Assembly (NCBI GenBank): GCA_965200715.1
Contig: OZ241374.1
Location: forward strand, 2,917,031 to 2,981,030
Direction of reading: 5' to 3'
Origin: Arenicellales bacterium
Lineage (GTDB): Bacteria; Pseudomonadota; Gammaproteobacteria; Arenicellales; Poriferihabitantaceae
DNA length: 64,000 bases
The translations under genes and the position numbers were made by a program. Positions 5,472 to 23,387 of the stretch are shown here, piece by piece. The notes beneath the pieces are model-generated. The model ran no database searches and had not been told where the DNA came from. It was given only the letters and a program-made list of their open reading frames with translations. Position 1 is the first letter of the stretch; each line of letters starts with the position of its first letter.

Positions 5472-5482
5472 GGGACAAGTCG

Positions 5483-6055: not shown

Positions 6056-6198
6056 ATCGTGGATAAAGTTTGCGAAGATGAGCACGTTTGGCGCGATGTT
6101 TATCATCAAAATATAGAAAAATATTTGAAAAGAACAGAACGCCAAATAAATAGTTTAGCAAAAGCATTTTTTGGAGACAGGCAGTTTCCAAAAAAAGT

Positions 6199-6507
6199 TT
6201 GTCCAGTAATTTGTATGATCTTATTTCGCTAAAACAAGCTACAGCATTTTCAGATTCTAGAGCAGGCAAACACGATCCACCCAAAACGATCAGGGGTTGG
6301 TGGAAAATGCGAGTGGCAGATCTACATGTGAATAAAATGATAGTTGAACATGCCCCCATTCATACTGAATATTGCAATAATGATTACCATGCAGAAATTA
6401 TCTTTCCAGAAGGTCATTGTGATTCGTGGGAAGATGCTGAGGTGCAATTGCTGTGCTTTATTTCTAATGGGTCATGGCAAGATATAGAGAAAATAGATGT
6501 TTCTTAA
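6199..6507 (+). CDS. Hypothetical protein
   Basis: 102-aa ORF in an AT-rich region. No clear SD and no domain. Confidence 0.3.
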   Translation: MSSNLYDLISLKQATAFSDSRAGKHDPPKTIRGWWKMRVADLHVNKMIVEHAPIHTEYCNNDYHAEIIFPEGHCDSWEDAEVQLLCFISNGSWQDIEKIDVS

Positions 6508-7202
6508 GATTATCCACAGTTTTTCTTAATTCGCTATATTCTTGACTTCTGAATTAACGCTCAAATATTCGGTTATTATTGATTGTTATCTTACTAGAAT
6601 TTGCAAGTATATCTCGGATCTAAGCAAGGCGAATTTAATTTTCTTTGTTAGCGAGTTTTTGCTCGGATTCTAGGGTTTGTTTTCTATTTTGTGCGTGATG
6701 GAGAGGTGTTGGATAGTCACAAATTCGGGTAATCGATTGTAATTGAACGTCATTTTTCTCAATTTATGGCTACAGGTAATGCCAGCATGAGCCTGATGCC
6801 CATCGGGCGCTATCGAAAATCAGTAGGTGCAGTTCGGTTTGCTGACTCATAGCCAGCGACAGATGTCCTAGCCCGAAGTACTGATCGATTTGCAGAGTTA
6901 TTTACAGGGTATAGCCGAAGATTTTAGGCATAAGGAAACGGTGTAAATAAGCATAAGAACCAAGATTGCGGTTTGCTATTTGGATAACCCAGACATTATC
7001 TAGAAACCGTTTAAGTAATCCGGCTTTGAGCACCGATATTGCTTGATAGCAAACATGATAACGATCTGTTTGTTCTGGTCGCGAAGGAATTCGAGAAACA
7101 CCAGAAAACTAGTTGGCTTATCGTATAACACAATATAAATCATCGTGAAAATCCACCTAAGTCAGTGTCTCTCCAGCGCGGAGTTATTAACACTGTTTCC
7201 AA

Positions 7203-7814
7203 TCACTGGGTTGAATCTCTTACCACATTTTCGTGAAAACGACAAAAATGCACGGATATTTTAAACAGGAACATATAAAACCCAAACTGACTTAATGTGA
7301 AAAGATTTTGCTCGCAATCTAAACAATCAAAATAGTCAACGGGTATTGTATGTATGTCATCAAAATAGGCAATATATTCGTCAAACAACTCTCCACCTTT
7401 AGGCAAATAAAAAACTGATGTCACTTCCTGTCTTCTTATACTCTCAATTTTCGACGAAATTACGTCAACTGGTAAACACTGACTTATGAGCAATTCTCTA
7501 TATCGAGATAGACTGATTAATGGGGCGAATACAATGTTTGGCGGTCGTTCTCTTTTATTGGCGATATCCATGTCGCAAGTATTCGAAAGCAAAATTCCTT
7601 TTGTGCTGATTCTTCTTGTATCTTTGAATTGAACTATTTCGAGCGCATCCCAACCGTCGCCCTGTAGTAACTCTCCCTGATGATGAGTGGTGTAATATGA
7701 GGCACTCTCGCCTTTTTGGGAGAAATCCTCAAGTGCTCTTCTAAGTCCTTCTTTTTGGTTCTGGGTCAAATAATACGGTATATGATCTCGTAACAAGTCA
7801 ACTGATACTTCCAT
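7203..7814 (-). CDS. Hypothetical protein, third gene of an AT-rich three-gene operon
   Basis: 203-aa ORF, 10 nt downstream of 7825..8172 on the same strand. No domain recognised. Confidence 0.55.
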   Translation of the reverse strand: MEVSVDLLRDHIPYYLTQNQKEGLRRALEDFSQKGESASYYTTHHQGELLQGDGWDALEIVQFKDTRRISTKGILLSNTCDMDIANKRERPPNIVFAPLISLSRYRELLISQCLPVDVISSKIESIRRQEVTSVFYLPKGGELFDEYIAYFDDIHTIPVDYFDCLDCEQNLFTLSQFGFYMFLFKISVHFCRFHENVVRDSTQ

Positions 7815-7824
7815 GTTAATTGCT

Positions 7825-8172
7825 TTATGAGCCGTATAAATCTGATAGGTTTTCGTTCAATACTTGTTCAAATTCCTTTCCTAATGGTTTCTGCCTAGAA
7901 GATAAAGTTGCATAGAAGGTAGAAACAGCTTCAACAAAATCCTCGTCACGTTTTACTAAATGAGGATTCTTGGAAGAGTAAGTTTCTAGACTTGTAGTAG
8001 AAGAGATGCCGTCATAAGTATATGAAGACTGAGATAAATTCCATTTTAAGCCTGTGGCATTTTTTTCTGATGTATCAACAGAGCTCAGATACTGACTAGC
8101 TGTGACGCCAATCAAAAAAAGGGCATTGGCCAAAGTTGCCGAGGACTGGCGGGAAAGATATTTATACGTCAT
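7825..8172 (-). CDS. Hypothetical protein, middle gene of the operon
   Basis: 115-aa ORF that overlaps the 3' end of 8162..8920 by 11 nt. Confidence 0.5.
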   Translation of the reverse strand: MTYKYLSRQSSATLANALFLIGVTASQYLSSVDTSEKNATGLKWNLSQSSYTYDGISSTTSLETYSSKNPHLVKRDEDFVEAVSTFYATLSSRQKPLGKEFEQVLNENLSDLYGS

Positions 8173-8920
8173 ATTTTGGATTCAAGGATGCAATCGTTTC
8201 CTCTTTCAGTAAATTGAAAAATAGTCTTTTATTTTCAGCATGAATAGATTCAAGGCCCTCTGAGACATATTGGGGCCAATCATCAATATCACTAGATTCT
8301 GGCATCATAAATATAGTATCTATATCAATAATAACGCCTTCTTTTACCACATTATTATTGACTATCAATTGTGCTAACGAAAGAATATTAACAATGTTGA
8401 GAAATTCTTCATGTGAAATTTCCACTTTTAATGAAAAGTCTTGACCCTCAAGTTTGTATTGACCAATGGATATTGTTGATTCAAGTAAGTCTATGTATTT
8501 CCTTGATGCATCCATTTCCAAGAGGTCGACATACTTCAGCGAGTATCTATGGATGCTCTTTACGATTCCTGCCTCATTAATTATTCCTATTATCTGTCTT
8601 ATTTTGGATCTGAATGGACTCCAACCTTGATATGGCATATTACAGGAAACGGCCGCATTTTTGTCGCCTATCAAAACATCATATCCTTCAAGCTGGAGTT
8701 TTACCAAAAAGGCAAATTGTAGGTTTGGGTCATTTTGCCTAATTATTGTGGGTATCTCGTTTGCAGGGAGTTTCTCAATATGTTTATGACCATCTAGCTT
8801 GCTATATAAAATACCTGCCAAGACATCAGATGTTGGCATATCGCTCGAAAAGCGAATCTCAAAAAGAGATTCAATAAGCGGTTCTTTTTCAAGACTTTTA
8901 GGTAATTTTCTATCTGACAT
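8162..8920 (-). CDS. Hypothetical protein, possibly TIGR04255-family
   Basis: 252-aa ORF. The N-terminal EPLIESLFEIRF resembles the conserved start of TIGR04255-family proteins. This is from memory and unverified. Confidence 0.5.
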   Translation of the reverse strand: MSDRKLPKSLEKEPLIESLFEIRFSSDMPTSDVLAGILYSKLDGHKHIEKLPANEIPTIIRQNDPNLQFAFLVKLQLEGYDVLIGDKNAAVSCNMPYQGWSPFRSKIRQIIGIINEAGIVKSIHRYSLKYVDLLEMDASRKYIDLLESTISIGQYKLEGQDFSLKVEISHEEFLNIVNILSLAQLIVNNNVVKEGVIIDIDTIFMMPESSDIDDWPQYVSEGLESIHAENKRLFFNLLKEETIASLNPKYDV

Positions 8921-9307
8921 GTTTCAATGCTCTGCTACAAACCAGTAAGTCCTAAATGACTGAGTGCAGGTTAGATTTGTGGTCTTCAATGATAGTGTCT
9001 CCGCATTGTGGGGTTGTGACTCCATCCTGAGATCCATTCTCAATCGCAGTACCTTCCCTATCTGCCGATGGATGAATTGCATCACCGCTAAGCCAGAGTC
9101 CAATACAACCTTCAGAGGATGGAGGTCATCATCTCACTCCAATATGGTTGCTAGACCGGTAATTCCGATCATAAGCGAGAACTTCATGGAATGCAATAAC
9201 AGTCTTATCTTCAACAGGGCAATTTTATGTTTAGCCTCAAATATTCAATTATAAATAAATAACACAAAAAGCTGGACTTTTGAATTTCAGTTTGTTATGC
9301 TCTCGGC

Positions 9308-11172
9308 ATGAACAGTCCAGTTAAGCCCTCGAAATCCGATCCACCGCTGCTCAATTTGCGCCTGGTGCGATACGATGAAATGGCGCAATACGATGATTTC
9401 ATGGATCAATACCATCGTCGTGGTGCCTTGAGACGGATCGGTCACGAGCTGCACTATGTGGTGGAAGATCGGGGGCAGTGGATTGCACTGATCAGTTTTT
9501 CTCCGGCCGCGCTGAAGTGTTCGGCCCGAGATCAGTGGATTGGCTTGATCTCGCAAATCCAGAACGACCGGTTGCGGTTTATCGTGAACAATTCGCGCTT
9601 CCTGATTTTGCCCGGTCATGCTGTTCCGAATCTGGGCTCGCGGATTCTGTCGACCTGCCGCAAGCGGCTTGCGAGTGACTGGATGAGGCATTTTTCCCAA
9701 CCGTTGTTATTGCTTGAGACCTTTGTTGATACGGATTTCCACGTGGGAACGATTTATCGTGCCGATAACTGGGTGTTGGCGGGAAAGACCCGAGGCTACC
9801 GGCGGGTGCATGGTGGCTATAGTCCGACTCCGACCGAGTCGGTCAAGTTGGTATTTGTGAAACCCCTGCATGCGGATGCCCAGGTGATCTTGCGAGCCCA
9901 GCCGCTTCCGGATGTGGATCAATATCGAGTGAAGAAGATGAATTTGGCAATTGAAGACTATGGTTCCCTGTACGACTATTTCCAGGGCATGAAGGATGTT
10001 CGCAGTCGCCAGGGCAGACGGCATGAACTGGCCAGCGTATTGTCCCTGATCGCTGCGGCGATGTTAAGTGGTGCGATCGGGTATAAGGGCATCTGGATCT
10101 GGTGCGATGAGTTGTCGCAGGCCAATCGTCGGCATTTCCACTGTCGAAGATGGAGAGGCAAGCGAATCACCCCTTCCATCACCTGTATTCGCAATACCAT
10201 GATCCAGGTGAATCCCGACCGACTGCAACAGCTGGTCAACCGGTTCAGCATCCAGCATTTCGGTTTGCCTTTTGAGCCGCTTGCGATTGATGGCAAGGTG
10301 CTGTGTGGTTCGAAAGGCGAGCACCATCGTCAGACCCAGGTTATGAATGTGGTGGGGCATGATAGTGGGTTTTGCTATGCGAAAAAAAAGTAGGGACGTT
10401 GCCGGTTGAGGGATCAGACGAGGAGAAGCAGTCGAACGAGATCAAGTTTTTCGCCCCGACTCTTGAGCAGATGGATATTGCCGGAAGGACGATCACGGCG
10501 GACGCGATGAATACCCAGATTGCATCGGCCAATTACATGATCGAACGCGGGGCGGATTTTCATTTTTCGGTCAAGGGCAACCAACCCGGTCTGCTCGAGG
10601 ATATCCAGGTCTGGTATGAGCAGCAAGGTCAGTTTCAGGAGCCGGATTTCGAAGAGCCGTTGGAGAAAGATCATGGGCGCATCACGCAACGCAAGATCTG
10701 GGTAACCGATCGGTTGAATGAATAGGTTGAATTCCCACATGTACAACCGGTATTTGTGATTGAGCGAAACGTCAAGGACCCCAAGGGGGAAAATCCAGAT
10801 CGTGTCGAGATCGTGTATGGCATCACCTCGCAGCATCAGGATCAGACAACCGCAGAAGAAATTCTGAAAACCAATAGAGGACATTGGTCGGTCGAGACCG
10901 CCCATCAGGTGCTGGACAATCCGCATGCCTTTGATGAGGACGGCAGCCGCATCCGCTGTGGGCACGGTCCGGAAAACATGGCCTGCATGCGACGTCTTGC
11001 CCTGACCCTGCTGCGCTATTATCAGCAGCGCAATCGTCAACCGATCACGGAACAGATCGAACGACTCAAGTACAACCCGCGACGCGTGCTTGACTATCTC
11101 CGGCTGACTGGCAACACCCGGCCCAGAAGGCGATCACCAACCGAGTGTTGGCCGCTATCGCTGGCTACCTAA
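9308..11172 (+). pseudogene. ISAs1-family (H-repeat-like) DDE transposase with N-terminal DUF4338-like domain, disrupted
   Basis: Three ORF pieces: 9308..10393, 10372..10725 and 10756..11172. N-terminal ARDQWIG..NNSRFLILP..LLLETFVD is homologous to the N-termini of the two 782-aa transposases. AIDGKVLCGS and ITADAMNTQ..FSVKGNQPGL are ISAs1 hallmarks. There is a frameshift at an A8 run (10382-10389) and an in-frame TAG at 10726. Confidence 0.75.
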
Positions 11173-11624
11173 GACAACCGACTGATATCTGCTGATTTTC
11201 GATGGCACCCGATGGGCGCCAGGTATCCGCTCGTGTCGATCTTGCCCACAGCACCGAAATCCTGGCGAAAGGATGCTCAATTCCAACGGATTAGCCGAAT
11301 ATCCGTCTAACCAACGCTCCCTGACCACATACAAATGGAAAAACAACCTCTGAAACCGAGCAAAAACGAGCGAATAAAAAAGAATAAATTTGCCTTGTTA
11401 TCCGATCTTTAACATTTTTGCGTTATCTGATCTAGGTCAAAATCCTATTTGGTCTATCTCTGGTCCATAAATATGCCCTTTTATGGCCTTTTTAGCCCCT
11501 TTTTTACGGATTTCGAGGCCTTCTAGAAAATGTAGTGACATGTAATAAGATATGGGTATTGACAGCGCTTGTAATCCACTGCTACGATTGCCTGTTCTGA
11601 AATACTGAATAGCTCCAATCGATC

Positions 11625-13469
11625 ATGTACATTCGTCAAGCCAAGACCGGAACCAGCTCAGATGGAACGGTCCACTACAGTTTCCGACTCGTCGAGAGCG
11701 TTCGAAATGGCGCACAAGTCCGACAGCTTACCTTGTTGAATCTAGGTCGTTATTTTTCAATTGAGCGGGAGTACTGGCCGCTACTCTGCCAGCGCATTGA
11801 AGAGTTGCGTAGCGGTCAGGTGCCCATTGGATATGGAGAGATCGACCCAACACTCGAAGCGGAAGCGCACCGCATTGCCAATCTTCTCAACCAGCGTCAG
11901 GGGCAGGCGGTCCCGGAACGCGTCTCGGTCGAGTCGGGACCGGACTGGCAAACCTTAGACCTCAATTCGGTCCAGGATCATGATGTGCGGACCATTGGAG
12001 GTGAATATGCGGCGCTTCAGGCGGTGCAGGAACTGGGACTGCCCGAGCGGCTGTTGGAATTGGGATTCAACCCTCGTCAGCAGCGGGTTGCCCTGGGTTT
12101 GATCATCGCCCGCATGATTGCTCCGGCATCCGACCGGCAAACGCATCACTGGCTGAGCAATATCAGTGCCACTGGGGAGTTACTCGGTCAGGACTTTGGT
12201 GCCTTGAGCGAGATGACGTTGCATCGGGTCTCGGATAAGCTGCTGGATCATCAGCAGGGCATCGAAGAGCAGGTATTTGAGCGGGCTTGCTCGCTGTTTC
12301 AGCTGCAGCCAACCTTGGCATTCTATGACTTAACCAATACCTATTTTGAAGGTTCGGCAGAGCAGATTCCCGAAGCCCAGTTTGGGCGTTCGAAAGAAAA
12401 GCGCAGTGACTGCCGGTTGCTGACCCTTGGACTGGTGGTGGATGCCAGTGGATTTGTGATGAAATCCCGCATGTTTGCCGGTAATGTTGCCGAAGTTCAG
12501 ACTCTTGAGACGATGATGGGTCAGCTTGGTGGGAAACCGGGAGCCGTTGTGGTCATGGACCGCGGCATTGCCTCGGCTTCCAACCTGGCTTGGCTGCGTG
12601 AGCAGGGCTATCAATATGTGGTGGTGTCTCGTGAGCAGACGCGGGAATTCGATTTCGAACATGCCCAGCTTGAAACCTTGACCAATCGCGCAAACCGGGA
12701 AGTACAGTATTACCAGGAGTTGGTGGAGCATCAGGAAAACGGGGAGACTTGGCAGGAATCCTATGTGCGTTGCTACTCGGAGGCGCGAGCTGACAAGGAA
12801 CAGTCACTGCTGAGGCATCATCAAAAGAACTATGAAGAACAGCTCACGCAACTCAATCATTCACTGGGTAAGCCCAAAGCCCGCAATACCATCGCCGTGA
12901 TTCAGCAACGTCTTGGTCGTCTGCACAAATCTCATTCCCGAGTTGCCCGGCATTATCAGCTGAATCTGATCACTACCGATGACGATACCCGGGTGAGTCG
13001 GGTCGACTGGCAGTTTGACCCAAAATCCGGCACCATGATGACCCATCCCGGCGTCTATGCCTTGCGCAGTAACATCCTCAACTGGGATGGGGAGACGCTC
13101 TGGAGGACCTATCATACCCTGACCGAAGTGGAGTCGGTGTTTCGTGCTCTGAAATCCGAACTGGGCATGCGACCGGTGTATCACCAGACCACTGAGCGCT
13201 GTTGTTCCCATCTATTGATCGCGGTACTGGCGTATCAGGCGGTGTGTGTGTTACGCACCCGCATGAAGGCGCAGGGCCATCATGACAGCTGGGGCATGAT
13301 TCGTGAAACTCTCAGCACCATCTGCAGAACCACAACCACCTTCCAGCGTCGGGATGGCCGCACCCTACATTTGCGAAAAACCGCCATGCCGGATGCCATC
13401 CAGTCCACGTTCTATCAGGCAATGGGATTGAAAACCCCACCTCGTAGACTGCAAAAAACCGTCGTCTAA
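11625..13469 (+). CDS. IS1634-like (IS4 superfamily) transposase
   Basis: 614-aa ORF starting MYIRQAKTGTSSDGTVHYSFRLVES, with YDLTNTYFEG and SKEKRSDCRLLTLGLVVD, all typical of IS1634-group transposases. GC is higher than in the flanks. The IS ends were not resolved (roughly 11.4-13.6 kb). Confidence 0.85.
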   Translation: MYIRQAKTGTSSDGTVHYSFRLVESVRNGAQVRQLTLLNLGRYFSIEREYWPLLCQRIEELRSGQVPIGYGEIDPTLEAEAHRIANLLNQRQGQAVPERVSVESGPDWQTLDLNSVQDHDVRTIGGEYAALQAVQELGLPERLLELGFNPRQQRVALGLIIARMIAPASDRQTHHWLSNISATGELLGQDFGALSEMTLHRVSDKLLDHQQGIEEQVFERACSLFQLQPTLAFYDLTNTYFEGSAEQIPEAQFGRSKEKRSDCRLLTLGLVVDASGFVMKSRMFAGNVAEVQTLETMMGQLGGKPGAVVVMDRGIASASNLAWLREQGYQYVVVSREQTREFDFEHAQLETLTNRANREVQYYQELVEHQENGETWQESYVRCYSEARADKEQSLLRHHQKNYEEQLTQLNHSLGKPKARNTIAVIQQRLGRLHKSHSRVARHYQLNLITTDDDTRVSRVDWQFDPKSGTMMTHPGVYALRSNILNWDGETLWRTYHTLTEVESVFRALKSELGMRPVYHQTTERCCSHLLIAVLAYQAVCVLRTRMKAQGHHDSWGMIRETLSTICRTTTTFQRRDGRTLHLRKTAMPDAIQSTFYQAMGLKTPPRRLQKTVV

Positions 13470-13679
13470 GTCAGACTCAACCTCCATTCATCCACCGAAA
13501 ATCGGTGGATGAATGCACTTGTAGTGCCACTCGATTTTTTTAATTGCAAATTATCAATAGGTTGGAACACTACATGTTAAACTTCGGTTATCTTCAATGA
13601 TAGAACTGAAATACCTTCCGATCGGCAATCATGTGGTTGTTGAGTTTTCTACGGAGGTAATGATTTCACGGCAGAGGTC

Positions 13680-13700
13680 GTTTCTGCCGCAAGCGGGTTT
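13680..13700. repeat. Orphan copy of the palindromic element (no porin attached)
   Basis: GGCAGAGGTCGTTTCTGCCGC is identical over 21 nt to the porin-linked copies. It then continues into the X flank instead of GGTGATG. Confidence 0.85.
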
Positions 13701-13815
13701 TGAAGGGGATTAAACTAATAGATAATCGTATTGTTGCAGACCAGTCCGTGTGATACAGAGTGGGCTGCAGATGTGGAGTTCAAGAACCTGATAACTGGAT
13801 TTAGGGCTATAGGGC
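13701..13815. repeat. X flank module (about 115 nt)
   Basis: AAGCGGGTTTTGAAGGGGATTAAAC....GATGTGGAGTTCAAGAACCTGATAACTGGATTTAG. It recurs inverted at 25050-25149 and 42230-42377, and as a short stub at 33786-33830. Confidence 0.75.
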
Positions 13816-13882
13816 TAGCGAGAATTTCCGTATAAAAATAACTCAGAGGACTCAAGAACTAGTCTATTGTGCAACGTGGCAT

Positions 13883-14410
13883 TTAACACAGACTTACGTA
13901 ATTTGGCCCTAAGTATTCTTCTATCTTTTCACCTTTGAGAGGCACCTCAGTGCCAGCAATTTCTGCATGCGATATGTTTTCAGAAAGTGCAGTATCGTAC
14001 ACGGCAATTGCCCGCATTCCATGATGATTAATTTCTCGGATAGTCTTAACGGAAATCTCAATAGAACCACAGTTTTTCTTTTTGTTATTTCCCTCTACTA
14101 ATTTAGTTGCCCGTAAGTTATGAGATTGCTGTGAAGTATACCCCTTTCGATCGGTAGACATGCCGTTTGTTATTCTTTGTTCAAAAAATGTGGGCTCTAT
14201 ACAACCATCAATTGACAAATAATTCTCAGAAGTAACAACTGAAAGAAGTGTTTCATGGTCATTTACAGGGCCGGGTGAGTAATCGCTTACTGAAACAAGC
14301 TCACATTCACAGCAGGGATGCTTTTTTCCTAGATCGTTCCAAAAATTTCGGCCTAACTTATTACGATTTTGAAAAAATTCTCTACATTTTGTTTCTTTAT
14401 TCTCGGTCAT
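13883..14410 (-). CDS. Hypothetical protein (module gene 2)
   Basis: 175-aa ORF that overlaps the upstream gene's 3' end by 14 nt. AT-rich. No domain recognised. Confidence 0.55.
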   Translation of the reverse strand: MTENKETKCREFFQNRNKLGRNFWNDLGKKHPCCECELVSVSDYSPGPVNDHETLLSVVTSENYLSIDGCIEPTFFEQRITNGMSTDRKGYTSQQSHNLRATKLVEGNNKKKNCGSIEISVKTIREINHHGMRAIAVYDTALSENISHAEIAGTEVPLKGEKIEEYLGPNYVSLC

Positions 14411-14867
14411 TTTGTGCCAGGAAGTTCGAAAGTACTTTCCAAACTTGACTCGTATCAGAGTTTACTACTGTTTCAAAATCTTCTTCAATCAACTGAATTT
14501 CATCACTTTCATAGTCACAGCACATTGATAATTTTCTATTTCCATTAAAATTTATTTCTGCATATCCTGCAAAATTATACCAATACAATACAACTTCTCC
14601 ATCTGGACTGGGCGCAGCACTAGTTGGTTCTTTTCCAAAAAAGCGACTCCTAAATTTATTCAAAAAATTTAACGATTGATAAATTGCTGATGATGGAATT
14701 TCCTTTGCACCATCTCCGTCCCAATTTTTTCCATAGGAAAAAAATTCTTGAATTCGTGCGTCAATCTTAGATTTTCGACCGTGTTCATCATTTGACAATA
14801 AATACGCATCTCGCATTGCATTAGAAAGCCGATCAACGCTAGCGTTCAGTTTTGAATTATCGTTCAT
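14397..14867 (-). CDS. Hypothetical protein (module gene 1) with shared leader and N-terminus
   Basis: 156-aa ORF with GGAGG SD. The first 20 codons (MNDNSKLNASVDRLSNAMRD) and about 170 nt of leader are homologous to 42399..42625. The rest is unrelated. Confidence 0.6.
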   Translation of the reverse strand: MNDNSKLNASVDRLSNAMRDAYLLSNDEHGRKSKIDARIQEFFSYGKNWDGDGAKEIPSSAIYQSLNFLNKFRSRFFGKEPTSAAPSPDGEVVLYWYNFAGYAEINFNGNRKLSMCCDYESDEIQLIEEDFETVVNSDTSQVWKVLSNFLAQNDRE

Positions 14868-15038
14868 ATCATTACCTCCATTTGTAGTCAGTATAGCGCG
14901 TCATACTGCTGAGATTTGCATGAAGAATAACGCGATAAAATACACTAATCATTTATATATTACCATTTTTTCTGGTATTTTTCATCATAACTGAACCGTA
15001 TGAATTATAAGAAGAAATAAGATGAAAATCCTTAGCGA
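14868..15038. promoter_or_regulatory. S flank module: conserved divergent leader between 14867(-) and the porin element
   Basis: Homologous to 42399..42565 (inverted). It contains a TATACT -10-like box and a GGAGG SD for the minus-strand gene. It also has ATGAAAATCC (15022) facing the porin, but in the +1 frame relative to it. Confidence 0.55.
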
Positions 15039-15064
15039 CAGAGGTCGTTTCTGCCGCGGTGATG
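15039..15064. repeat. Invariant 26-nt porin 5' element
   Basis: CAGAGGTCGTTTCTGCCGCGGTGATG, with the left arm as GACAGA. Confidence 0.9.
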
Positions 15065-15997
15065 TTGCCTATCGGGGCACAGGCGGATGTGTCCATTTAC
15101 GGGCGCATAACGAACGGAATTAAGTACGTTGATCCGGCGGAACCTGGTGCCGATTCAACGACCGATGTCCATAGCTATGGTTCACGATTTGGCTTTAAGG
15201 CCAATTCCGATCTGGGTAACGGCATGACTGCAATTGGTCATTTCGAGTTCCAAGCCAGTACCGACAATACAGGTGCCAACGCTGACGGGCTGGGGAATAT
15301 GAAAACCCGGCTTGGATATGTCGGGGTTGAAGGCGGATTCGGGAAAGTCACAATTGGCAACCAATCCGCGGCGTTTTATAACAATGTTCACTTTGATCGC
15401 AGTTTCTGGAACGGCGGACACGGAGGCTATCCGGGTAGCCGCTCTTCCAATACGATTAAGTATTCCAATGCCGTAGGGCCGTTAAGCTTTCAAGCCGACT
15501 TAAGAGTCGATGCTGCAGATGATGGAGCATATGAAGCAAATACCGAAGGTTTAGGCAAAGGCAATGGTGGAGCTTTGGGTTTACAAGCCGCATTATCCGA
15601 CAACCTGACTTTGGGATTTGGTTTTGACACTCAAGACCAGGCAGATATGACCGATGGCACGGAAACCGATGTTTTTGGCATGTCCGGGCTAGCTACCTTT
15701 GGCCAATTTGATGTTTCGCTAGCCTATGCAAACAAAGAAGTGTCTGGTGAAGAAGATACCCAGCTCATGCAGTTATGGGCCAGTGCAAGCCTAACCGATC
15801 AAACTCTTGCGCGGGTTGGATACGGGCAGGAAGATCAGGACGAAAGCGAAGCAACGCCAAGCACTCTGACCGCAGTATTGATTCACAATCTTGGAGGCGG
15901 TTTTCGAGTTTGGTATGAAGGCAATGCCACAGATGACGATGTAGCTGATATGGATACCAAAGTAACCCATGAATTTGGCTTGCGGTTTGACTTCTAA
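15059..15997 (+). CDS. Gram-negative porin family beta-barrel; 5' start unresolved
   Basis: DVSIYGRITNGIKY, GSRFGFKANSDLGNGMTAIGHFEF, NTIKYSNAVGPLSFQADLRV, C-terminal FGLRFDF. The upstream in-frame codons run into TGA without any ATG, GTG or TTG. Confidence 0.85.
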   Translation: MMLPIGAQADVSIYGRITNGIKYVDPAEPGADSTTDVHSYGSRFGFKANSDLGNGMTAIGHFEFQASTDNTGANADGLGNMKTRLGYVGVEGGFGKVTIGNQSAAFYNNVHFDRSFWNGGHGGYPGSRSSNTIKYSNAVGPLSFQADLRVDAADDGAYEANTEGLGKGNGGALGLQAALSDNLTLGFGFDTQDQADMTDGTETDVFGMSGLATFGQFDVSLAYANKEVSGEEDTQLMQLWASASLTDQTLARVGYGQEDQDESEATPSTLTAVLIHNLGGGFRVWYEGNATDDDVADMDTKVTHEFGLRFDF

Positions 15998-16026
15998 CCC
16001 CATATTGATTTAGAGGAAATTAAACA

Positions 16027-17223
16027 ATGAAACAAAATATTTTTATAGCGGCCCTATTGGCCGGTATGCTGGCACTCGCGGGTTGTGGGGGCGGAAGTAG
16101 TTCAAACAACAGCGGCGGTAATGATGACAAGACGCCACCTCCGCCACCACCGCCAACTACCACGAAAACCGCGGGCGTTCCAAATAATCTAGTAGTCCGA
16201 GGCGGTACGGCCGGACTATCGTTTAACCTTGCTACCGGTGAACTTCGGTTTATTGAAGGTTATTGGTTTAGATGTACAGGTGGAACCTGTGCCGGATCTG
16301 TGGCCGCTGGCGCACAGGTTGGCACAGTTTCTTACACTGGAACAGGGACTCTTGAGATTCTTACAAGCAACCCAACTCTGGCGGATTCAAGTACTGGTAA
16401 TATAGATCAGCCAACCGAATCTACCGATCCATTGAGTAATGATGTATTGCTTAAAGCGCTTCGAGGCACAGGTAGAGTTGCCACTGACAATACAGTTTGG
16501 AATGTCGGAGAAGGTGCTGGAACACGGCCCACTAACGGCACCACATTGCCATTTACCCCTTTAGATGGTTCGCGAATAGATCTAACGATTAGTGCGGCCG
16601 GAAGTTCCAACGACGCTTATTTTGGTCATTGGGTAAAGAGCACGGCAGACCTTACCAGCTCAGGAGATCAAGATACTCTTGTAAATCGGAACCTTGGTGA
16701 TCGAGGAACTGTATGGGGCGGGGCAATGCCTTATGGGAAAAAGCCTGACACTTCCCTAGGAACGGCCTCTTACGATGAAGATGATGCAGTATTGCTTTAT
16801 TTCAGTGGCAACGGAAGAACATGGACGAACGCTACTGGAAACCTTACTTTTAATGCCAATTTCGAAACAGGCATGGTAGGCGGAAATATCGTTGTAGTTC
16901 CCGGAGGTGCTACTGGACTTGTAGCGGCAACCGACAACATTGATCTTATGGCTACCATGATCGGAAATGATGGTAAGTTTTCTGGCTCTGCCAGCTTTAC
17001 CAACTCTAATGTTAGGCGTGATTCTGGTAGTTGGAACGGAGGGTTTTTTGGTCCTACAACAACAGTTACTGGAACACCGCCGGCAGAAGCTCATGCACCG
17101 CCAGATTTTGTAGCGGGTGCGTTTAGTGTTTCAAGGCCAGCGATCGGAACATCTACTACAGTTAGTGCAACAGCACAAAACCAGTTGCACATTCGCGGTG
17201 CATTTGGAGCAGACGACGGATAA
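16027..17223 (+). CDS. Surface lipoprotein with TbpB-like C-terminal region
   Basis: MKQNIFIAALLAGMLALAGCGGGSS lipobox, a PPPPPPP linker, C-terminal GGFFGP..AGAFSV..IRGAFGA. Starts 29 nt after the porin stop. Confidence 0.8.
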   Translation: MKQNIFIAALLAGMLALAGCGGGSSSNNSGGNDDKTPPPPPPPTTTKTAGVPNNLVVRGGTAGLSFNLATGELRFIEGYWFRCTGGTCAGSVAAGAQVGTVSYTGTGTLEILTSNPTLADSSTGNIDQPTESTDPLSNDVLLKALRGTGRVATDNTVWNVGEGAGTRPTNGTTLPFTPLDGSRIDLTISAAGSSNDAYFGHWVKSTADLTSSGDQDTLVNRNLGDRGTVWGGAMPYGKKPDTSLGTASYDEDDAVLLYFSGNGRTWTNATGNLTFNANFETGMVGGNIVVVPGGATGLVAATDNIDLMATMIGNDGKFSGSASFTNSNVRRDSGSWNGGFFGPTTTVTGTPPAEAHAPPDFVAGAFSVSRPAIGTSTTVSATAQNQLHIRGAFGADDG

Positions 17224-17234
17224 CTAACCAACCA

Positions 17235-17262
17235 AACCGGGGCGTAACAACCCCGGTTTTTT
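17235..17262 (+). terminator. Rho-independent terminator (conserved family)
   Basis: AACCGGGGCGTAACAACCCCGG followed by T6. Confidence 0.85.
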
Positions 17263-17335
17263 CTATACCGAAACCCCAAACCCATACGGCGGATCGGTTT
17301 GATCCCGTCAAGCAACTATCCCATAAGAAGAAGAA

Positions 17336-18556
17336 ATGAAACCGAAATGCTCAATAGCGATCCTGTTGACCACAATGCTAGCCTTAACAGGTTGCGGGGG
17401 TGGCGGATCGGGCAATGCTGAGCCAGGCAATGAAGCAGCACCACTAGCAAGCGTTTCCAGTACCGGAATACACCACTACGGCATTGATTCGGATGCCCGC
17501 CGGGACTACCGGCGATCCATGTATGATGACTGCGTAGCAGAGAGAGGCCGGTCGCGCTGTTCCCTATCCGGTCGTGGATGGTTTTACCGCTGGAACCAAT
17601 TGCCGAAAGTACATATTTCCTCAAACACTACACAGGAGGGAATATGGGCAATTCGGAGGACAATCGGCATCCTCAACCGTTCTCTACCTGAGGAATACCG
17701 GCTTAGTTACGAAACAACCAACCGGACATTTTCTGGTGTGGATAGGGATGACAGGACATCCCGTGTCGAGTCTCTTGTGCCGAGGGGCGTGATTCATGCG
17801 GAGATCTACCCCTATGATGACCCAGAGTTTAGCGGATGGGCTTGGACCGATGGCGAACGGGGCTATGCCCTTGGCGATGAGACCGATCTTGACCTATCCG
17901 ATCCCTTGGACATGTCCTTTGCGGTGGAGACCATGGCACATGAGTTCCTGCATGCTCTCGGGCTGGTCGCACACCCACAGGAAATCCACACGTCCATCAT
18001 GTCCTATCGCTATCACTCTGAAGGAGAAATTGAGAGAGTGCCGCTGATTGATGTTGCCATGCTCCATGACCTATACGGCTGGGGATTCTGGGATGGGGAA
18101 ATGAAAAGGGTTACCGAGCATGAGGGTGGAGTGCATTTCGGGGTAGATAACCTGCATCGAGGGACTGCCGTCATTCCATGGGTGGATGCAAGATACCTAG
18201 CGGCTCCAAGACCGAATGAATTATCAGATAGTGCATCATACGATGGAACCTTAGTCGGATATGCTACGAATGGAACTGCCCTATATGGTGACTCAGATCT
18301 CAGCATTAACTTTAATCGAGGAACGGGAGTGGCCCGTTTTCACCGGATTACAGACTGGGATGGCAATTCTTGGAATCGAAGTGGCTATCGCTATGATCTC
18401 AGTCTATATGGCCATTACTTCGATTCGACCATAGATTCACAGGATCAAGATGGTATTCTAGATGTGGTCGGGGCGTTCTATGGGTTTGAGGCAGAAACCG
18501 CAGCAGGTACACTTCAAAGACCGGAGATTACCGCCGCTTTTGGTGCGGTTAAGTAA
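17336..18556 (+). CDS. Zinc-metalloprotease lipoprotein (metzincin/serralysin-like) with TbpB-like C-terminal barrel
   Basis: 406 aa. Lipobox LALTGCGGGGS, HEFLHALGLVAHPQEIHTSIMSY (HExxH..G...H plus an SxMSY Met-turn), C-terminal ASYDGTLVGYA..DLSINFN..GVARF..VVGAFYG..AAFGAVK. Confidence 0.85.
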   Translation: MKPKCSIAILLTTMLALTGCGGGGSGNAEPGNEAAPLASVSSTGIHHYGIDSDARRDYRRSMYDDCVAERGRSRCSLSGRGWFYRWNQLPKVHISSNTTQEGIWAIRRTIGILNRSLPEEYRLSYETTNRTFSGVDRDDRTSRVESLVPRGVIHAEIYPYDDPEFSGWAWTDGERGYALGDETDLDLSDPLDMSFAVETMAHEFLHALGLVAHPQEIHTSIMSYRYHSEGEIERVPLIDVAMLHDLYGWGFWDGEMKRVTEHEGGVHFGVDNLHRGTAVIPWVDARYLAAPRPNELSDSASYDGTLVGYATNGTALYGDSDLSINFNRGTGVARFHRITDWDGNSWNRSGYRYDLSLYGHYFDSTIDSQDQDGILDVVGAFYGFEAETAAGTLQRPEITAAFGAVK

Positions 18557-18655
18557 GGATTCGTTTTTTCCGTTTTCGACTCAGTTGTAATCCAGCTCTT
18601 CGGTTCTTTGCAACGATCCTGAAACGCTTGTTTAGCGGTTTGGAATAGGCTGGTT

Positions 18656-18817
18656 TTAACTCCCTTTTTCAATGTTTGGATAATCCAAATAGCAAACCGC
18701 AATCTTGGCCCTTATGCTGGCTTGTAGCGTTTGCGGTGATTTCTTTTCGGCTATACCCTGTAAGTAACTTTGCAAATCAATCAAGGCTTCCTTTTTCGTT
18801 TCATGCTCATCTGCCAT
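18656..18817 (-). CDS. Small hypothetical protein (53 aa), paralog of 61638..61799
   Basis: My translation: MADEHETKKEALIDLQSYLQGIAEKKSPQTLQASIRAKIAVCYLDYPNIEKGS. It falls below the ORF-track length cut-off. A partial third copy lies at about 6890-7010. Confidence 0.45.
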   Translation of the reverse strand: MADEHETKKEALIDLQSYLQGIAEKKSPQTLQASIRAKIAVCYLDYPNIEKGS

Positions 18818-18879
18818 GCTGGTTTACCTCATAGGGCGTGAAGTTCCGTTTAGCGGCGTGGTTATTGGTTAGGGTATTA

Positions 18880-19113
18880 TTATGAGGAATCAAGCCTATT
18901 TCTTATACTTTCTAGTAATCCATTTGTTTTATACATGTTTCTATTCAAATCGCAAATTAGCGTGTCAAGCAAATTGCCTATATCATCCAACTTGTGTATC
19001 AATAAAAGGGTTGGTATATCATTGTTAAGCTCAGATAACGGCACTTCGAGTTCATGATCCTTTTTTCCAAGATTTATTGTTACTTTAACTTTTTCTGGTT
19101 CCATTTTTCGCAT
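18880..19113 (-). CDS. Small hypothetical protein
   Basis: 77-aa ORF downstream of the 19162..20971 terminator. AT-rich. No domain. Confidence 0.35.
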   Translation of the reverse strand: MRKMEPEKVKVTINLGKKDHELEVPLSELNNDIPTLLLIHKLDDIGNLLDTLICDLNRNMYKTNGLLESIRNRLDSS

Positions 19114-19125
19114 CTCAAAAGGAAA

Positions 19126-19146
19126 CCGGGGGTTGTCACGCCCCGG
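19126..19146 (-). terminator. Terminator hairpin (conserved family, weak T-tract)
   Basis: CCGGGGCGTGACAACCCCCGG on the minus strand, 16 nt after the stop at 19162. Confidence 0.6.
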
Positions 19147-19161
19147 TATATTGATTGTTAA

Positions 19162-20971
19162 TTATGGTTGCTCAACGGCTCCGAATGCGCCGCGATGTCG
19201 TATGTAGGTAAATCCTTCAGGATCAGGATCGGCTGTACTATCATTTTCGGTGGCGGTATTGAGGGTTGTATCAGTGCCATTTGGCTGATAGTCAAAATCA
19301 CCGACAATCCATCGCCCTTGATGTACAAACCTTGCGTTCCAGTCACCAGAATCTTCACTTTGACCATTGTTTATATTGCCAGAGGCCATATAGTTACTGA
19401 TAGCACCTTCCTCAAAGGCTATGGTGTCAGTTGGAATCGGATCATCGTGCCTTCCTCTACTTATGCTTCCGTTAAGAGTATTGTTATCAAAATCAGCAGT
19501 CAATGTTATCTCTCCAATCCAAGGTAAATATTGAGGATCATATACAGGATTTGTGATATCTCCGTCACTTTCTGTAATACCCACAACATCACCTCTATAG
19601 CTTGCCGTTCCAGTTTTCGCACCGAGATACTCCCTTCCGGTTGCGGGTGCGGGGTCATTACCACCAATAGCCGCACCCCCCTCAATAAGTACAGGAACGG
19701 AATCGGTATTGCCAACTATTATCCCACTATCCGAAACCCAGGCCCCAAAACCCATGCGGTCATCGTCATCAAAATCGTTGGCAGCATCATCTTTTGACTT
19801 GCCATATACGGCTATGGCGTATATATTATTACCAGTGTTCTCCGCTCCTCTACCCGGTGCTACAGAAGTCTCGCTAGTTACGCTAATCCAGCCGTGAGTA
19901 TCAACTACCGTAACTTCATGACTTGCACCGCCAAGACCAGAGGATATGTCGATTGTCCATCGGCCCATAGTACCATCACCATTATCGAAAGTAGCATCAT
20001 ACTCAATCTCGGTTGTAGGTCGGTCTGCTAGCACTTCGGGCTGTTCTGGCATCCCAGGAACGTTAGCCCTTATCGCATCGAGACGGGCGGTATAACTCAA
20101 AATAGTACCATCTCCGACCAGCAATTCGTGAGCTTCGGTGTTATCCACACCATCCGCCATGAGTGCTGTTAGTAGCGCTGCATGAAATTCTTCAATATCC
20201 GTAATATCAGTAGTCATGGGAGTTGCTCCTGACTGTTCCTGAACTTCCAGCGCAGTTTTCAGATTCATAACCGCGGTGTTCAATGTCATCTGAGGTGGAA
20301 ACGCAAGCCTTATCGCAGCGAGACGCTGGACATAAGTCATACTAGCCGGAGTACCCGCATCAGCAGCAGTATCTCCGTTCAGCAGATTTTGGGCGGTAGT
20401 ATGCTCTGGGCTACTATCTACACCAGTATCCAGATTGCCTAAGAGGTTTCGTAACATTGTACGTGCAGATACAATGTCCCCAATTTCCTTAGCTGTTGGA
20501 ATTCCATCTTCACCTTCGTCCAATGCCGTCATGAGTGCTGCGGCTGCTTTTCCCAGATCCGCCGCGCTCGTTTTAGCTGGAGGCGGTGGTGGCGGTGGTG
20601 GAGGCCCACCATTACTAGCGACCACCTGATTATCCTCACCCTTTATCTTCTCGAGGCGGCCTTCATACCCATTCAATAGCATGGTGATCTGATCGGTTTT
20701 GGTATCTACTCCGTCCGCCGCATCCTCGATGGCCTTGTCAAGTTCCCCTTTCGCTGTTTCAATGTCCGCAATCTGCTCAGACGTGGGGGTTGTTGCAGCT
20801 TCGGCCTTCTTCAATGCGGTATCTAGTTTCATGACCGCATCATCCAACTTCGTTTGGGCGGCTTGCCTAACTGATTCAGTATCGTCAAGGGTGCCGCCCC
20901 CCCCCCCCTCCGCAACCTGCCAGGGCTAACATGGCCGCCAGTAGTGCGGTTATCAAAATATTCTGTTTCAT
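19162..20971 (-). CDS. Surface lipoprotein with TbpB-like C-terminus; out of frame at a poly-G tract (putative phase-OFF)
   Basis: ATG at 20971 gives MKQNILITALLAAMLALAGCGGGGG, then 12 G put the reading frame into a TGA. The 561-aa body (19162..20847) is in the frame that 11 or 14 G would restore. C-terminus GTASYRGDVVGITE..LTADFDNNTLNGSI..GDWNARF..RHRGAFGAVE. Confidence 0.8.
20897..20908. repeat. Homopolymeric tract, 12 C on plus (12 G in the gene sense)
   Basis: Counted directly: gccg + cccccccccccc + tccgc. It lies 3 codons after the lipobox Cys. Confidence 0.95.
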
Positions 20972-21047
20972 TATTGATTCCCCCTTAAAGGTTCTAGGAA
21001 TGCCCAGCTTTTCATGCTGGTTCCGGTTTCAAACTGATAGAAAAAAA

Positions 21048-21067
21048 CCGGGGTTGTTACGCCCCGG
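21048..21067 (-). terminator. Rho-independent terminator (conserved family)
   Basis: Minus strand: ACCGGGGCGTAACAACCCCGG followed by T7, 17 nt after the stop at 21084. Confidence 0.85.
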
Positions 21068-21083
21068 TTTGTGTTAAGCGTTA

Positions 21084-22439
21084 TTACTTGGTAGCTCCGA
21101 ATGCGCCGATTATTTCGGCTCGGTTGTTGGTTATATCGAATTGACCGGTTACATGGTTTGGAACTTGATCATCACCTACATCATGAAAATGAACATTACC
21201 CCAAGTTCCAGATTCTGGATCGTTATCGCCTATTTTCCATTCGGCAATGGCAGTTATACCGTCATAATTAGTTAAAGCACTTATGTTTTGTGTGCCGCCA
21301 CTACCATCAGATTCTGTAGAGGTTAATGAGATGGACCAACCCGCTTTTTCCTTGCCATCAACCATGAATTTGTCAATCGTGCCTTTTAGCGTATTCACAG
21401 TAGCATCGAAATCAGCCGTAAGCTTCGCATTGGCAGTGAAATGACCGGATTCATGCGCCTTTGGTACTTCACTGTATATGGCATACTTGCCCGCCGCTCC
21501 GCCTTCGTAGGTTGCTGTTCCGGTAGTAGCTGCTACTTCGCTAAATCTCCTTGCATCAGCATCAGCAGCAGCAGTTCCAGTAGTTCCAGAAAATACGTTT
21601 ACTTGGTATTTATCACCAGTTGCACCCGTATCAAGCCACCATCCGTAATAGGCATATACATTTTTCGGATCGGTTACTTTGCTATCTGCTGAAGTGGGGG
21701 TAAACGTCCAAGTCCCAGTCAACGCTCTTTTTTCATCGGCATGTTTTGTAATAAAGCAGGTGCTGACAGTGCCTGTACAATCATATTTGCCCGAAACACC
21801 ATAATATGACCCTTGAATAGTAAATCCACCACGTATCAAATCTGCTGCTTTGAAAGCATGCCTGCCTGAAGTGCCGGTTATACTGGGAATGACTATCCGG
21901 TCTGTTGGAGCGGCACCAGAAAAATCAAAACTAAGGACGCTACCAGCCGCAACTCCTGTTACCCCGGGGTCTTCAGTTCTTGCGGAAAAATCAGTAGGAA
22001 ATTCTGTACTAAACTTCATTCCTTCCCCTTTTGCATTGGCCCGCCAGTAGACGCGCGCTTCCTTCTTGTCCTTTTTGAAATAGCCGCCAGTCCATCCGTT
22101 GTTAGCTGATACGCTATCGGTTGTTTTGGCCAAGTCATCAGTACCTTGTTCAACCTTTGTTCCATCAAATGTAATCGTGCTAGGTGCAGGTGTACCAATC
22201 GCAGCGTGCAGTTTCTTGGCCATGGTCTCGGCATCCTTACCTTGTTCTTTGGCTAAATCATCTTGCGCTTTTTCTAGATCTTCCTTAAGTTCCTTATTCT
22301 CATCTTCAAGCTCACTAATCTTTTCTTTGTCTGGATCAGTCGGCGGATCCTGCTGCACCGTGCTGCTGCTCCCGCCCCCGCAACCTGCGAGTGCCAGCAT
22401 ACCGGCTAATAGGGCCGCTATGTATATTTTCTGTTTCAT
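21084..22439 (-). CDS. Surface lipoprotein with TbpB-like C-terminal barrel
   Basis: 451 aa. MKQKIYIAALLAGMLALAGCGGGSS, SYYGVSGKYDCTG..WTFTP..YYGWWL handle-like motif, GTATYEGGAAGKYA..GHFTANAKLTADF..LKGTIDKF..GTWGNVHF..AEIIGAFGATK. Confidence 0.85.
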   Translation of the reverse strand: MKQKIYIAALLAGMLALAGCGGGSSSTVQQDPPTDPDKEKISELEDENKELKEDLEKAQDDLAKEQGKDAETMAKKLHAAIGTPAPSTITFDGTKVEQGTDDLAKTTDSVSANNGWTGGYFKKDKKEARVYWRANAKGEGMKFSTEFPTDFSARTEDPGVTGVAAGSVLSFDFSGAAPTDRIVIPSITGTSGRHAFKAADLIRGGFTIQGSYYGVSGKYDCTGTVSTCFITKHADEKRALTGTWTFTPTSADSKVTDPKNVYAYYGWWLDTGATGDKYQVNVFSGTTGTAAADADARRFSEVAATTGTATYEGGAAGKYAIYSEVPKAHESGHFTANAKLTADFDATVNTLKGTIDKFMVDGKEKAGWSISLTSTESDGSGGTQNISALTNYDGITAIAEWKIGDNDPESGTWGNVHFHDVGDDQVPNHVTGQFDITNNRAEIIGAFGATK

Positions 22440-22468
22440 TGTTTATTTCCTCTTAAATTGAATCAGGC

Positions 22469-23383: not shown

Positions 23384-23387
23384 CGCG

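Follow-up and report, generated by a model that had tools for sequence, protein, structure and literature searches.

In the R64 shufflon, the adjacently encoded recombinase Rci acts on inverted sites only and fuses a constant 5′ part to one of several variable 3′ parts, which are arranged as convergent alternative coding ends. Its sfx sites have a 7-bp spacer, and the spacer and one arm are conserved while the other arm is variable. The vsa, vpma, and vsp systems of Mycoplasma, which produce lipoproteins of wall-less bacteria, comprise one expression site (a promoter and 5′ end), many silent genes that begin at a short 5′ recombination site, and an adjacent gene for a dedicated Xer-like recombinase. 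The sap system of Campylobacter fetus achieves antigenic variation by RecA-type exchange. For Omp1 of Dichelobacter nodosus, a model of multiple site-specific inversions was reportedly put forward by Moses et al. in 1995, in Molecular Microbiology (volume 17, from page 183). The linked genes for variants of this major outer-membrane protein are proposed to be switched by site-specific inversion (cited in PMC4196234). In the susC/susD shufflons of Bacteroides, tyrosine recombinases acting at repeats of 22 to 49 nt relocate the N-terminal regions, signal peptides included; the described loci include BT1040-1046 and BT2260-2268 of Bacteroides thetaiotaomicron and those of the Tsr0667-type tyrosine recombinases of Bacteroides fragilis (bioRxiv 10.1101/2025.06.24.661302). 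Here we describe a short palindrome, element E, and the porin genes attached to it in a 64,000-nucleotide stretch of an Arenicellales bacterium genome (GCA_965200715.1, contig OZ241374.1, positions 2,917,031 to 2,981,030), hereafter called the window.

The window carries an invariant E site at the 5′ ends of porin genes that lack their own starts, and strains that are 98 to 100% identical on both sides of E differ by exchanges located at this element. We consider it fairly likely, on the strength of these sequence relationships, that such exchanges arise by site-specific recombination at E, carried out by a recombinase encoded elsewhere, and that they switch which porin-lipoprotein operon is joined to a single complete leader. 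By analogy, a system of this kind would most resemble a shufflon for surface-protein switching. In the scheme that we propose, each porin-lipoprotein operon would begin at E without a start codon or signal-peptide n-region of its own, and recombination at E would swap its upstream partner. The partner would be either a non-expressing flank (types X, Y, L, and S, defined below) or a complete leader elsewhere in the genome that provides a promoter, a ribosome-binding site, and an ATG-AAA-AAA start (MKKSLVAAVV..). The operons for porins and TbpB-like lipoproteins would thereby be switched on or off. The exchanges are predicted to depend on a dedicated site-specific recombinase whose gene lies outside the window, and only the leader-linked porin would be made.

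Element E has the sequence GGCAGA-GGTCGTT-TCTGCC(GC) and is a palindrome of 19 to 21 bp with arms of 6 and a spacer of 7 (6-7-6). With no more than three mismatches allowed, the 21-mer GGCAGAGGTCGTTTCTGCCGC has seven copies in the window, as compared with 0.00 expected by chance. These copies, and the porin P2 that follows one of them, are as follows.

4757-4777, minus strand: E at porin P1 (3757-4755), with leader flank Y1
13670-13690, plus strand: orphan E, an exact match, at the junction of flanks L and X
15037-15057, plus strand: porin-linked E, GACAGAGGTCGTTTCTGCCGC, direct to the orphan copy
15059-15997, plus strand: porin P2 (Porin_4), intact and start-less, with TbpB-like lipoprotein genes downstream
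23385-23405, minus strand: E at porin P3 (22469-23383), with leader flank Y2
25148-25168, plus strand: E at porin P4 (25146-26234), with an inverted X upstream (25112-25147)
33767-33787, minus strand: E at porin P5 (32782-33789), with an inverted X upstream (33788-33825)
54880-54900, plus strand: E at porin P6 (54902-55921), with a diverged inverted X upstream (54842-54879)

A prior reading made from the letters of the window alone (the sequence-only reading) had noticed an orphan copy and a porin-linked copy in direct orientation. Both copies and their orientation stand, but the coordinates do not: the orphan was placed 10 nt too far along (at 13680-13700), and the porin-linked copy was placed at 15039-15058 instead of 15037-15057. 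Across the window, which holds one degenerate copy in addition to the seven listed, the orientation of E at leader/porin junctions alternates (−, +, −, +, −, +).

Six of the seven copies lie at the 5′ ends of open reading frames (ORFs) that match Porin_4 in Pfam. In the porin frame, the E region translates as (A/T)EVVSAAVM(L/I)P(L/I)G(A/V)QA, a sequence that comprises both the hydrophobic core of a signal peptide and its cleavage site. The six porins are intact, with lengths of 304 to 362 amino acids, a C-terminal Phe, and protein identities of 36 to 80%. The E core, CAGA-GGTCGTT-TCTG, sits within a 26-nt block (CAGAGGTCGTTTCTGCCGCGGTGATG) that is identical in all six genes. By contrast, pairwise identity averages 32% over the 60 nt that precede the block, and beyond it the figure is 77% and then 46%. 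Synonymous sites of the block are invariant across more than eight codons, even between porins that are only 36 to 45% identical. The absence of synonymous change in the block, together with the perfect orphan copy in non-coding sequence, shows that the constraint acts on the DNA. The palindromic arm CAGA is also retained in flanks that are otherwise unrelated.

None of the six window porins has an in-frame start with an MKK n-region. The S flank carries ATGAAAATCCTTAGC in the wrong frame and the L flank carries GGAGGTAATG in the third frame. Y-type flanks have no start; those of type X are interrupted by an in-frame stop and offer no better start than a GTG without a Shine-Dalgarno sequence, which would give N-termini such as MAEVVSAAVM.. 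or MKKSLVAAVVSAAVM... Full-length relatives recovered by protein search start with MKKSLVAA(A/V)VSAAVM.PVGAQA, and many close relatives are annotated with short N-termini (MMPVGAQA, MAVSAAVM, or MAEVVSAAVM). The complete (ON) leader of the window's lineage is present on a contig from another sample (L075) and reads ...ttgaggaaaaacta ATGAAAAAATCCTTAGTGGCTGC GGTCGTTTCTGCCGCGGTGATG. The same leader occurs in a sister lineage (contigs L056 to L058), there with the spacer GGCAGTG, and in all four contigs it shares the spacer and right arm with E but has an imperfect left arm. The spacer variant is constant within a lineage, the ON leader included: GGTCGTT in the window lineage and GGCAGTG in the ERZ25070844/OZ244855 lineage. 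Such uniformity is what concerted evolution of partner sites would be expected to produce, provided that recombining sites must match.

Evidence for exchange comes from contigs of related strains from other samples (L055 to L079). Three independent assemblies (L072, L073, and L074) consist of window positions 9214-4778 (98.4% identity) joined to 23384-20899 (99.4%), such that flank Y1 is attached to P3 in these contigs and to P1 in the window. A three-way alignment with the loci at 4757 and 23385 places the switch point inside a common 37-nt stretch that contains E. Flank L, which is 100% identical to 13588-13690, also meets a porin at E in two of these contigs, where the porin has a P6-type 5′ end (L072) or a different one, Pz (L073); the junction is thus L/X in the window and L/porin in L072 and L073. 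The stretch 13656-15087, which includes both direct copies of E and the module between them, is 99% identical on three further contigs (L059, L060, and L061). On L059 and L060 the S flank and E are followed by a different porin, P3′, which is 87% identical to P3, and the left flank is of another type (L2), giving L2/module/P3′ in place of the L/module/P2 of the window. At E, L2 is joined directly to yet another porin (P39) in L076. In the sister lineage, L077 and L078 share one leader segment but differ in the porins at both of its ends, and the sequences upstream of one porin differ from inside E onward between L056 and L057.

The alternative arrangements have their breakpoints at E, and the flanks are 92 to 100% identical. 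Position 2 of E (G or A) co-segregates with the left flank. At junctions that involve X, the partners share only E positions 3 to 21, which restricts the crossover interval to at most 19 nt and makes it coincide with the palindrome. We regard these sequence comparisons as supporting E as a genuine recombination point. The sequence-only reading had held that fixed, ancient paralogous rearrangements would speak against this interpretation; junctions with 98 to 100% identical flanks contradict that explanation; a junction near 42 kb (see below) is old. Four contigs (L060, L061, L072, and L073) terminate either at E itself or no more than 40 nt away, and L061 spans exactly E to E, ending after ..GGTGATG, where continuations diverge to T or A. 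Such contig ends at E match the behavior of assembly graphs at a variable junction and are a hint of heterogeneity. One leader segment and its neighboring porin segment occur twice in a single 3.2-Mb contig (ena:ERZ25070844 ctg10140; L078 at 313294-329920 and L079 at 1-16466). The second copy is at the contig end, and a 3.2-kb stretch is 100% identical but inverted; this duplication may reflect unresolved structural heterogeneity of the assembly.

E-like sequences were also sought more widely. A genome-contig collection was scanned with an 18-mer, and 54 of the 55 matches were chance or unrelated (for example, a zinc-finger-like motif on the reverse strand and a Nostoc repeat), leaving L055 as the only relevant one; all nine matches to a 19-mer in a metagenome-contig collection were attributable to chance. 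L055, which derives from Candidatus Poriferihabitans sp. of the Arenicellales (OZ244855.1), matches window 7795-9214 at 96% identity and so places the window in a gammaproteobacterium associated with sponges. The window contains no Rfam family and no tRNA, and a promoter and terminator scan of 13400-15200 remained below shuffle expectation. The hairpin that E can form is modest (−7.6 kcal/mol), and hairpins are present at both ends of the module. This last feature prompted consideration of an IS200/IS605 insertion sequence (Y1 HUH transposase), a reading that we rejected on finding that the two module genes match neither Y1_Tnp nor OrfB. A serine-recombinase site with a 2-bp center was also set aside, on reasoning from the sequence, because the half-sites align around no central dinucleotide.

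Judged by the positions of E, the window appears to be a mosaic of E-bounded segments, of which the module is one. The sequence-only reading had overlooked both this mosaic and the placement of E within the signal-peptide codons of porin genes that have no start.

to 4756: segment A, ending in P1
4778-13669: segment B, from Y1 to L
13691-15036: segment C (the module), from X to S
15058-23384: segment D, with P2 and P3 facing each other
23406-25147: E-segment, from Y2 to X
25169-33766: segment F, with P4 and P5 facing each other
33788-42377: segment G, from X to X
42399-54879: segment H, from S to X
from 54901: segment I, starting with P6

Porin segments, each with two convergent operons for a porin and TbpB-like lipoproteins, alternate with leader segments, and relatives on L071, L057, and L078 have the same architecture. 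In a shufflon-like layout of this kind, inverting a porin segment would bring its other porin next to a given leader. The leader segments carry sets of genes resembling toxin-antitoxin (TA) or defense systems (a TIGR04255-family operon, SocA/Panacea, HigBA, a split AbiE, and the module genes gA and gB), and they also bear later insertions of insertion sequences, transposons, and an element of the 'recombinase in trio' (RIT) type.

The content that had been proposed for the module between the direct E copies was borne out, with X, two ORFs, and S at the expected places.

13588-13669, plus strand: leader flank L, ending in GGAGGTAATGATTTCAC, with an ATG out of the porin frame
13691-13815 (end approximate), plus strand: X, whose core (about 38 nt) is 13691-13727; this copy lies to the porin side of E
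13883-14410, minus strand: gB, a cargo ORF of 175 amino acids from the ORF list (198 amino acids in L059)
14397-14867, minus strand: gA, a cargo ORF of 156 amino acids that overlaps gB and has a conserved WDGDGAKEIP...SPDGE domain
14801-15036, plus strand: S block, composed of the leader-like flank 14868-15036 and the first 22 gA codons

Flank L is 100% identical in L072 and L073, where it is followed by E and a porin, and is partly conserved in L055. Searches of Pfam, PADLOC, PHROGs, and NCBIfam gave no match for gB and a single, weak match for gA, to the defense-candidate family PDC-M32A; by the same searches, which were negative or marginal, the module contains no recognizable recombinase. 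The gA protein is identical on L059, L060, and L061. Exact-protein look-ups for P2 and P4 from an internal ATG, a 184-amino acid ORF, the Panacea ORF, and P0061 returned no match.

The porin leader in the S flank (ATGAAAATCCTTAGC) is out of frame because it has A4 in place of the A6 of the functional leader. For this reason S is best read, from its sequence, as a decayed copy of the complete leader. We rejected the idea that S is a functional leader restored by frameshifting, in that A4 is constant in all five S copies seen (window and L059 to L061) and no frameshift stimulator is evident. The 22 codons within the S block (MN.xSKLxxSVDRLxNAMRDxY) head two otherwise unrelated genes, one in each of the two S blocks of the window (14801-15036 and 42397-42632), whereas gA homologues in relatives have a different N-terminus of about 75 amino acids. 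Because the same block heads an unrelated gene and the homologues differ in this way, the S block was evidently transplanted into the coding sequence, replacing the native 75-residue N-terminus of gA in the window lineage. In the sister lineage, two divergent porins flank an ordinary segment that holds the homologues of gA and gB and that ends in X on one side and in a 'gatttccc' leader on the other. The module is one leader/cargo segment whose X end meets leader L and not a porin, and it is this joining of X to L that makes its two E copies direct.

The sequence-only reading had also pointed to a place, given as 42230-42565, where S and X are joined in permuted order across a degenerate element. 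This junction is real and is located at 42261-42565.

42261-42377, minus strand: X copy, inverted, with 42370-42261 85% identical to 13696-13805
42378-42396: degenerate element E*, GACGGAGGTAGTCTCTGCC on the minus strand, with three mismatches in 19, between S and X
42397-42632, minus strand: second S block, joined here to another small gene (42566-42727) that is followed by 42736-43290

The portion 42397-42565 is 83% identical to S, and the homology continues as far as 42632, taking in the next gene's first 22 codons; the whole S blocks (14801-15036 versus 42397-42632) are 83 to 90% identical. Because of this 83 to 85% identity, the decayed element, and the different cargo, the junction reads as an old, fixed relic and not as a recent copy of a circle junction.

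The core of X (about 38 nt, searched with an nhmmer profile) is found only beside elements, at 13690 (+), 25147 (−), 33788 (+), 42377 (−), and 54879 (−), and it does not pair with E in a hairpin check. X had been reported as inverted directly upstream of the porins at 25146 and 33789; both cases hold, but the number of such porins is three, the additional one being at 54880. X lies on the leader side of E at 25148, 33767, and 54880 and on L057 and L071, and on the porin side at 13670 (and L059), at 42398, and on L055, in each case at the same distance from the arm. The earlier caution that the spacer has opposite orientations relative to X at these junctions is confirmed by alignment. To account for the L/X and S/X junctions, we suggest that the perfectly palindromic arms might occasionally permit synapsis in the wrong orientation; the exchange would leave a heteroduplex spacer that could segregate to either orientation. 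The spacer orientation shared by leader/X junctions is not significant, given about three independent cases.

Several observations weigh against switching of porins by a dedicated recombinase at E. A Pfam survey of about 60 window ORFs identified no invertase or other plausible recombinase beside the E sites. The sequence-only reading had proposed looking for a co-occurring Xer-like or serine recombinase; the only site-specific recombinase genes in the window are the RIT trio, which lies inside a transposon and has repeats (AATGCCGAGT) unrelated to E. The occurrence of X on either side of E relative to the spacer is forbidden by strictly conservative, spacer-directed recombination, and a direct-repeat module is atypical of inversion-only shufflons. 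All of the alternative arrangements come from different samples or strains (92 to 99.9% identity) and none from within a single clone. The complete ON leader is absent from the window, where all six porins are start-less, and the existence of a single expression site is deduced from the matching leader on the other-sample contig L075.

The sequence-only reading interpreted the two direct E copies as attL and attR of a circularizing cassette. Under this interpretation, segment C plus one E is a mobile cassette that excises as an S-E-X circle and integrates conservatively at any leader-E-porin site, leaving direct copies of E as attL and attR, silencing the porin, and adding cargo. We judge this unlikely, even though the behavior of the module as a unit is borne out by its 99% identity in three samples and two contexts, and a circle is possible but not needed. 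Conservative integration does fit the direct copies that bound the module and all spacer orientations in L-E-X...S-E-P, as well as the exact E-to-E extent of L061 and the S-E*-X junction at 42261-42565, yet that junction is old (83 to 85%), with a decayed E and different cargo. The predicted empty site was found in part: L/porin (L072 and L073) and L2/porin (L076) sites exist, but no contig examined contains an exact empty L/P2 site or a 99%-identical S-E-X junction. The contexts of the module fit either circle excision and integration or conservative inversion with X serving as a porin-side end, and the exchanges can be explained without a circle because conservative inversions between inverted E copies give the same differences. 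Also difficult to reconcile with a cassette are the lack of a recombinase in or beside the module, the location of gA and gB homologues in an ordinary segment between divergent porins, and the S block, a transplanted fragment that cuts into gA. A broader version, which we hold to be doubtful, is that E-bounded X...S/Y segments constitute a new kind of gene cassette, in which defense or TA modules would enter a 19-bp palindrome within porin signal-peptide codons and leave as S-E-X circles. Were this so, one event would both silence a phage-receptor porin and install a defense gene pair, and a recombinase tolerating either orientation of the palindrome would explain X on both sides.

A different explanation is that RecA-dependent homologous recombination or gene conversion acts at the short porin 5′ ends, with no dedicated recombinase and with conversion homogenizing the 26-nt block. 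This view agrees with the mapping of leader/porin exchanges to the common block of 26 to 37 nt, with the failure to find a recombinase nearby, and with the existence of antigenic-variation systems of this type, such as that of C. fetus. However, the block is very short for RecA recombination, and X junctions share only 19 to 21 nt with their partners or, in the opposite orientation, just the 6-bp arms. An island of 26 nt at 100% identity beside unrelated sequence would be hard to keep, since conversion needs two-sided homology, and neither the retention of the CAGA arm in unrelated flanks nor the clustering of every leader exchange at E, despite the longer homologies (83 to 90 nt) among lipoprotein signal sequences, is expected. 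Silent-cassette systems of the pilE/pilS, msp2, and sap type have long border homology, of tens to hundreds of bp, whereas here 26 nt are invariant and the upstream sequence is 32% identical pairwise. RecA-type exchange thus seems to us quite unlikely. Far less probable still is that the arrangements are fixed ancient paralogous rearrangements or artefacts of metagenome assembly, with the palindrome a by-product of signal-peptide codons. The palindrome does follow in part from the codons for A-E/A-x-V-S-A, the left arm of the ON leader is imperfect, the 42-kb junction is old, and all variants come from metagenome assemblies. Nevertheless, chimeric junctions have 98 to 100% identical flanks on both sides, and the Y1/P3 junction is common to three independent assemblies, one of them a k141 assembly, where a 37-nt repeat is unable to produce the join. 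In addition, the orphan E is perfect in a non-coding context, and synonymous sites of the block are invariant across porins that are 36 to 45% identical.

Several mobile elements and other repeats are present in the window. The RIT element occupies 46781-50552, with tyrosine-recombinase genes at 46883-47872, 47865-48848, and 48772-50433, and it is bounded by 119-nt inverted repeats that contain repeated AATGCCGAGT motifs and no E-like motif; its trio was for this reason considered an unlikely recombinase for E. It is inserted in an rve/Mu-type transposase gene (45989-46786, with the helix-turn-helix part at 50570-51082), and a second fragment of a RIT end is located at 39889-39946. The disrupted gene belongs to a Tn552/Tn7-like module (44351-46786) encoding a Toprim/DUF3991 protein, a TniB-like AAA_22 ATPase, and the rve transposase. 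Two transposases of 782 amino acids (51776-54124 and 56183-58531) combine a DruA-like domain at the N-terminus with DNA-binding, DDE, and dimerization domains of Tn5 type. Segment B contains the following insertion, which L055, L072, and L073 lack and which does not belong to the E system.

9215-13587: insertion-sequence-type insertion with a DruA/DDE_Tnp_1_assoc ORF and a 614-amino acid DDE transposase

The DruA + DDE_Tnp_1_assoc ORF (361 amino acids) lies at 9308-10393, and a homologue of the DruA-type transposase interrupts a porin in L056. A truncated integrase near the ON porin in L057 was discounted as a candidate because L056 and L058 lack the island that contains it.

Also in segment B is a conserved three-gene operon (7203-8920; 252, 115, and 203 amino acids) with matches to the TIGR04255 family and PHROGs 5464, 5728, and 4575. 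It is 96 to 98% identical in L055 and L072 to L074 and may be a defense system carried in this leader segment. The signal-peptide regions of the lipoprotein genes (MKQKIYIAALLAGMLALAGCGGG) form 13 copies of an 83- to 90-nt repeat that are 60 to 98% identical (families D1 and D2; for example, 16019-16101, 26253-26335, and 55941-56023), and L072 departs from the window at one such copy. These repeats are longer than E and could provide a second layer of recombination among lipoprotein genes. In a TbpB/HpuA-like lipoprotein gene on the minus strand (about 20975 to 19162), the codon for the lipobox Cys is closely followed by a G12 homopolymer (20897-20908). The G12 frame ends after 'GGGGGRHP', and G11 or G14 would connect it to the ORF at 19162-20847, which makes the tract a candidate slipped-strand phase-variation switch. 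L072 has G7 at this site and then diverges.

If recombination at E does switch porins, the window would represent a large array that uses recombination to switch porins and TbpB-like surface lipoproteins in a sponge-associated gammaproteobacterium that has not been cultured (a relative of Arenicellales/Candidatus Poriferihabitans; a literature search returned no paper naming Poriferihabitans). At least six silent operons would be present within 64 kb, with TA- or defense-like gene sets in the exchangeable segments between porins. The array would also offer a testable example of a host-restricted symbiont that varies its outer surface, including phage receptors and targets of host recognition, and it poses the mechanistic question of how, at a palindromic site with an asymmetric spacer, one and the same flank can occur to either side. 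For annotation, porins called 'N-terminally truncated' in these metagenome-assembled genomes are probably silent cassettes and not annotation errors or pseudogenes.

Comparison with the systems described at the outset shows both likenesses and differences. As in the Bacteroides shufflons, outer-membrane protein genes would swap their N-terminal part by inversions at short repeats, with several haplotypes reached stepwise. The Bacteroides loci, however, encode a tyrosine recombinase and have two or three alternative genes, whereas here at least six porin operons occupy 64 kb with no recombinase nearby, and the site is a palindromic block of 19 to 26 nt, with interleaved defense and TA segments, in a different phylum and a different protein family (Porin_4). 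D. nodosus offers the likeness of gammaproteobacterial outer-membrane protein variants with proposed inversion switching, but in four genes at one compact locus, for which neither cargo segments nor direct-repeat modules are described. R64 is similar in its convergent segments and its short sites with a 7-bp spacer, and here too a constant 5′ part would be fused to a variable 3′ part. Unlike in R64, both arms of E are conserved in silent sites, direct-repeat configurations occur, and the constant part comprises the leader and signal-peptide n-region only. The Mycoplasma systems would share the principle of one expression site serving many silent genes, but here each variable unit is a porin with lipoprotein operons behind it. 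Integron cassettes are similar in having small cargo, often TA or defense genes, bounded by short palindromic sites, and the cassette model predicts a circular junction. E, however, is a 6-7-6 palindrome of 19 to 21 bp, as opposed to an attC of 57 to 141 bp, and its sites are inside coding sequence; the cargo has its own upstream region, is oppositely oriented, and varies in orientation, whereas attC cassettes are co-oriented; and the window contains no IntI-type integrase gene and no attI or Pc. The differences from these known systems lie in the protein family and host, the scale, the lack of a linked recombinase, the location of the site within the signal-peptide sequence, the interleaving with defense and TA genes, the flank that occurs on both sides of the site, and the direct-repeat module.

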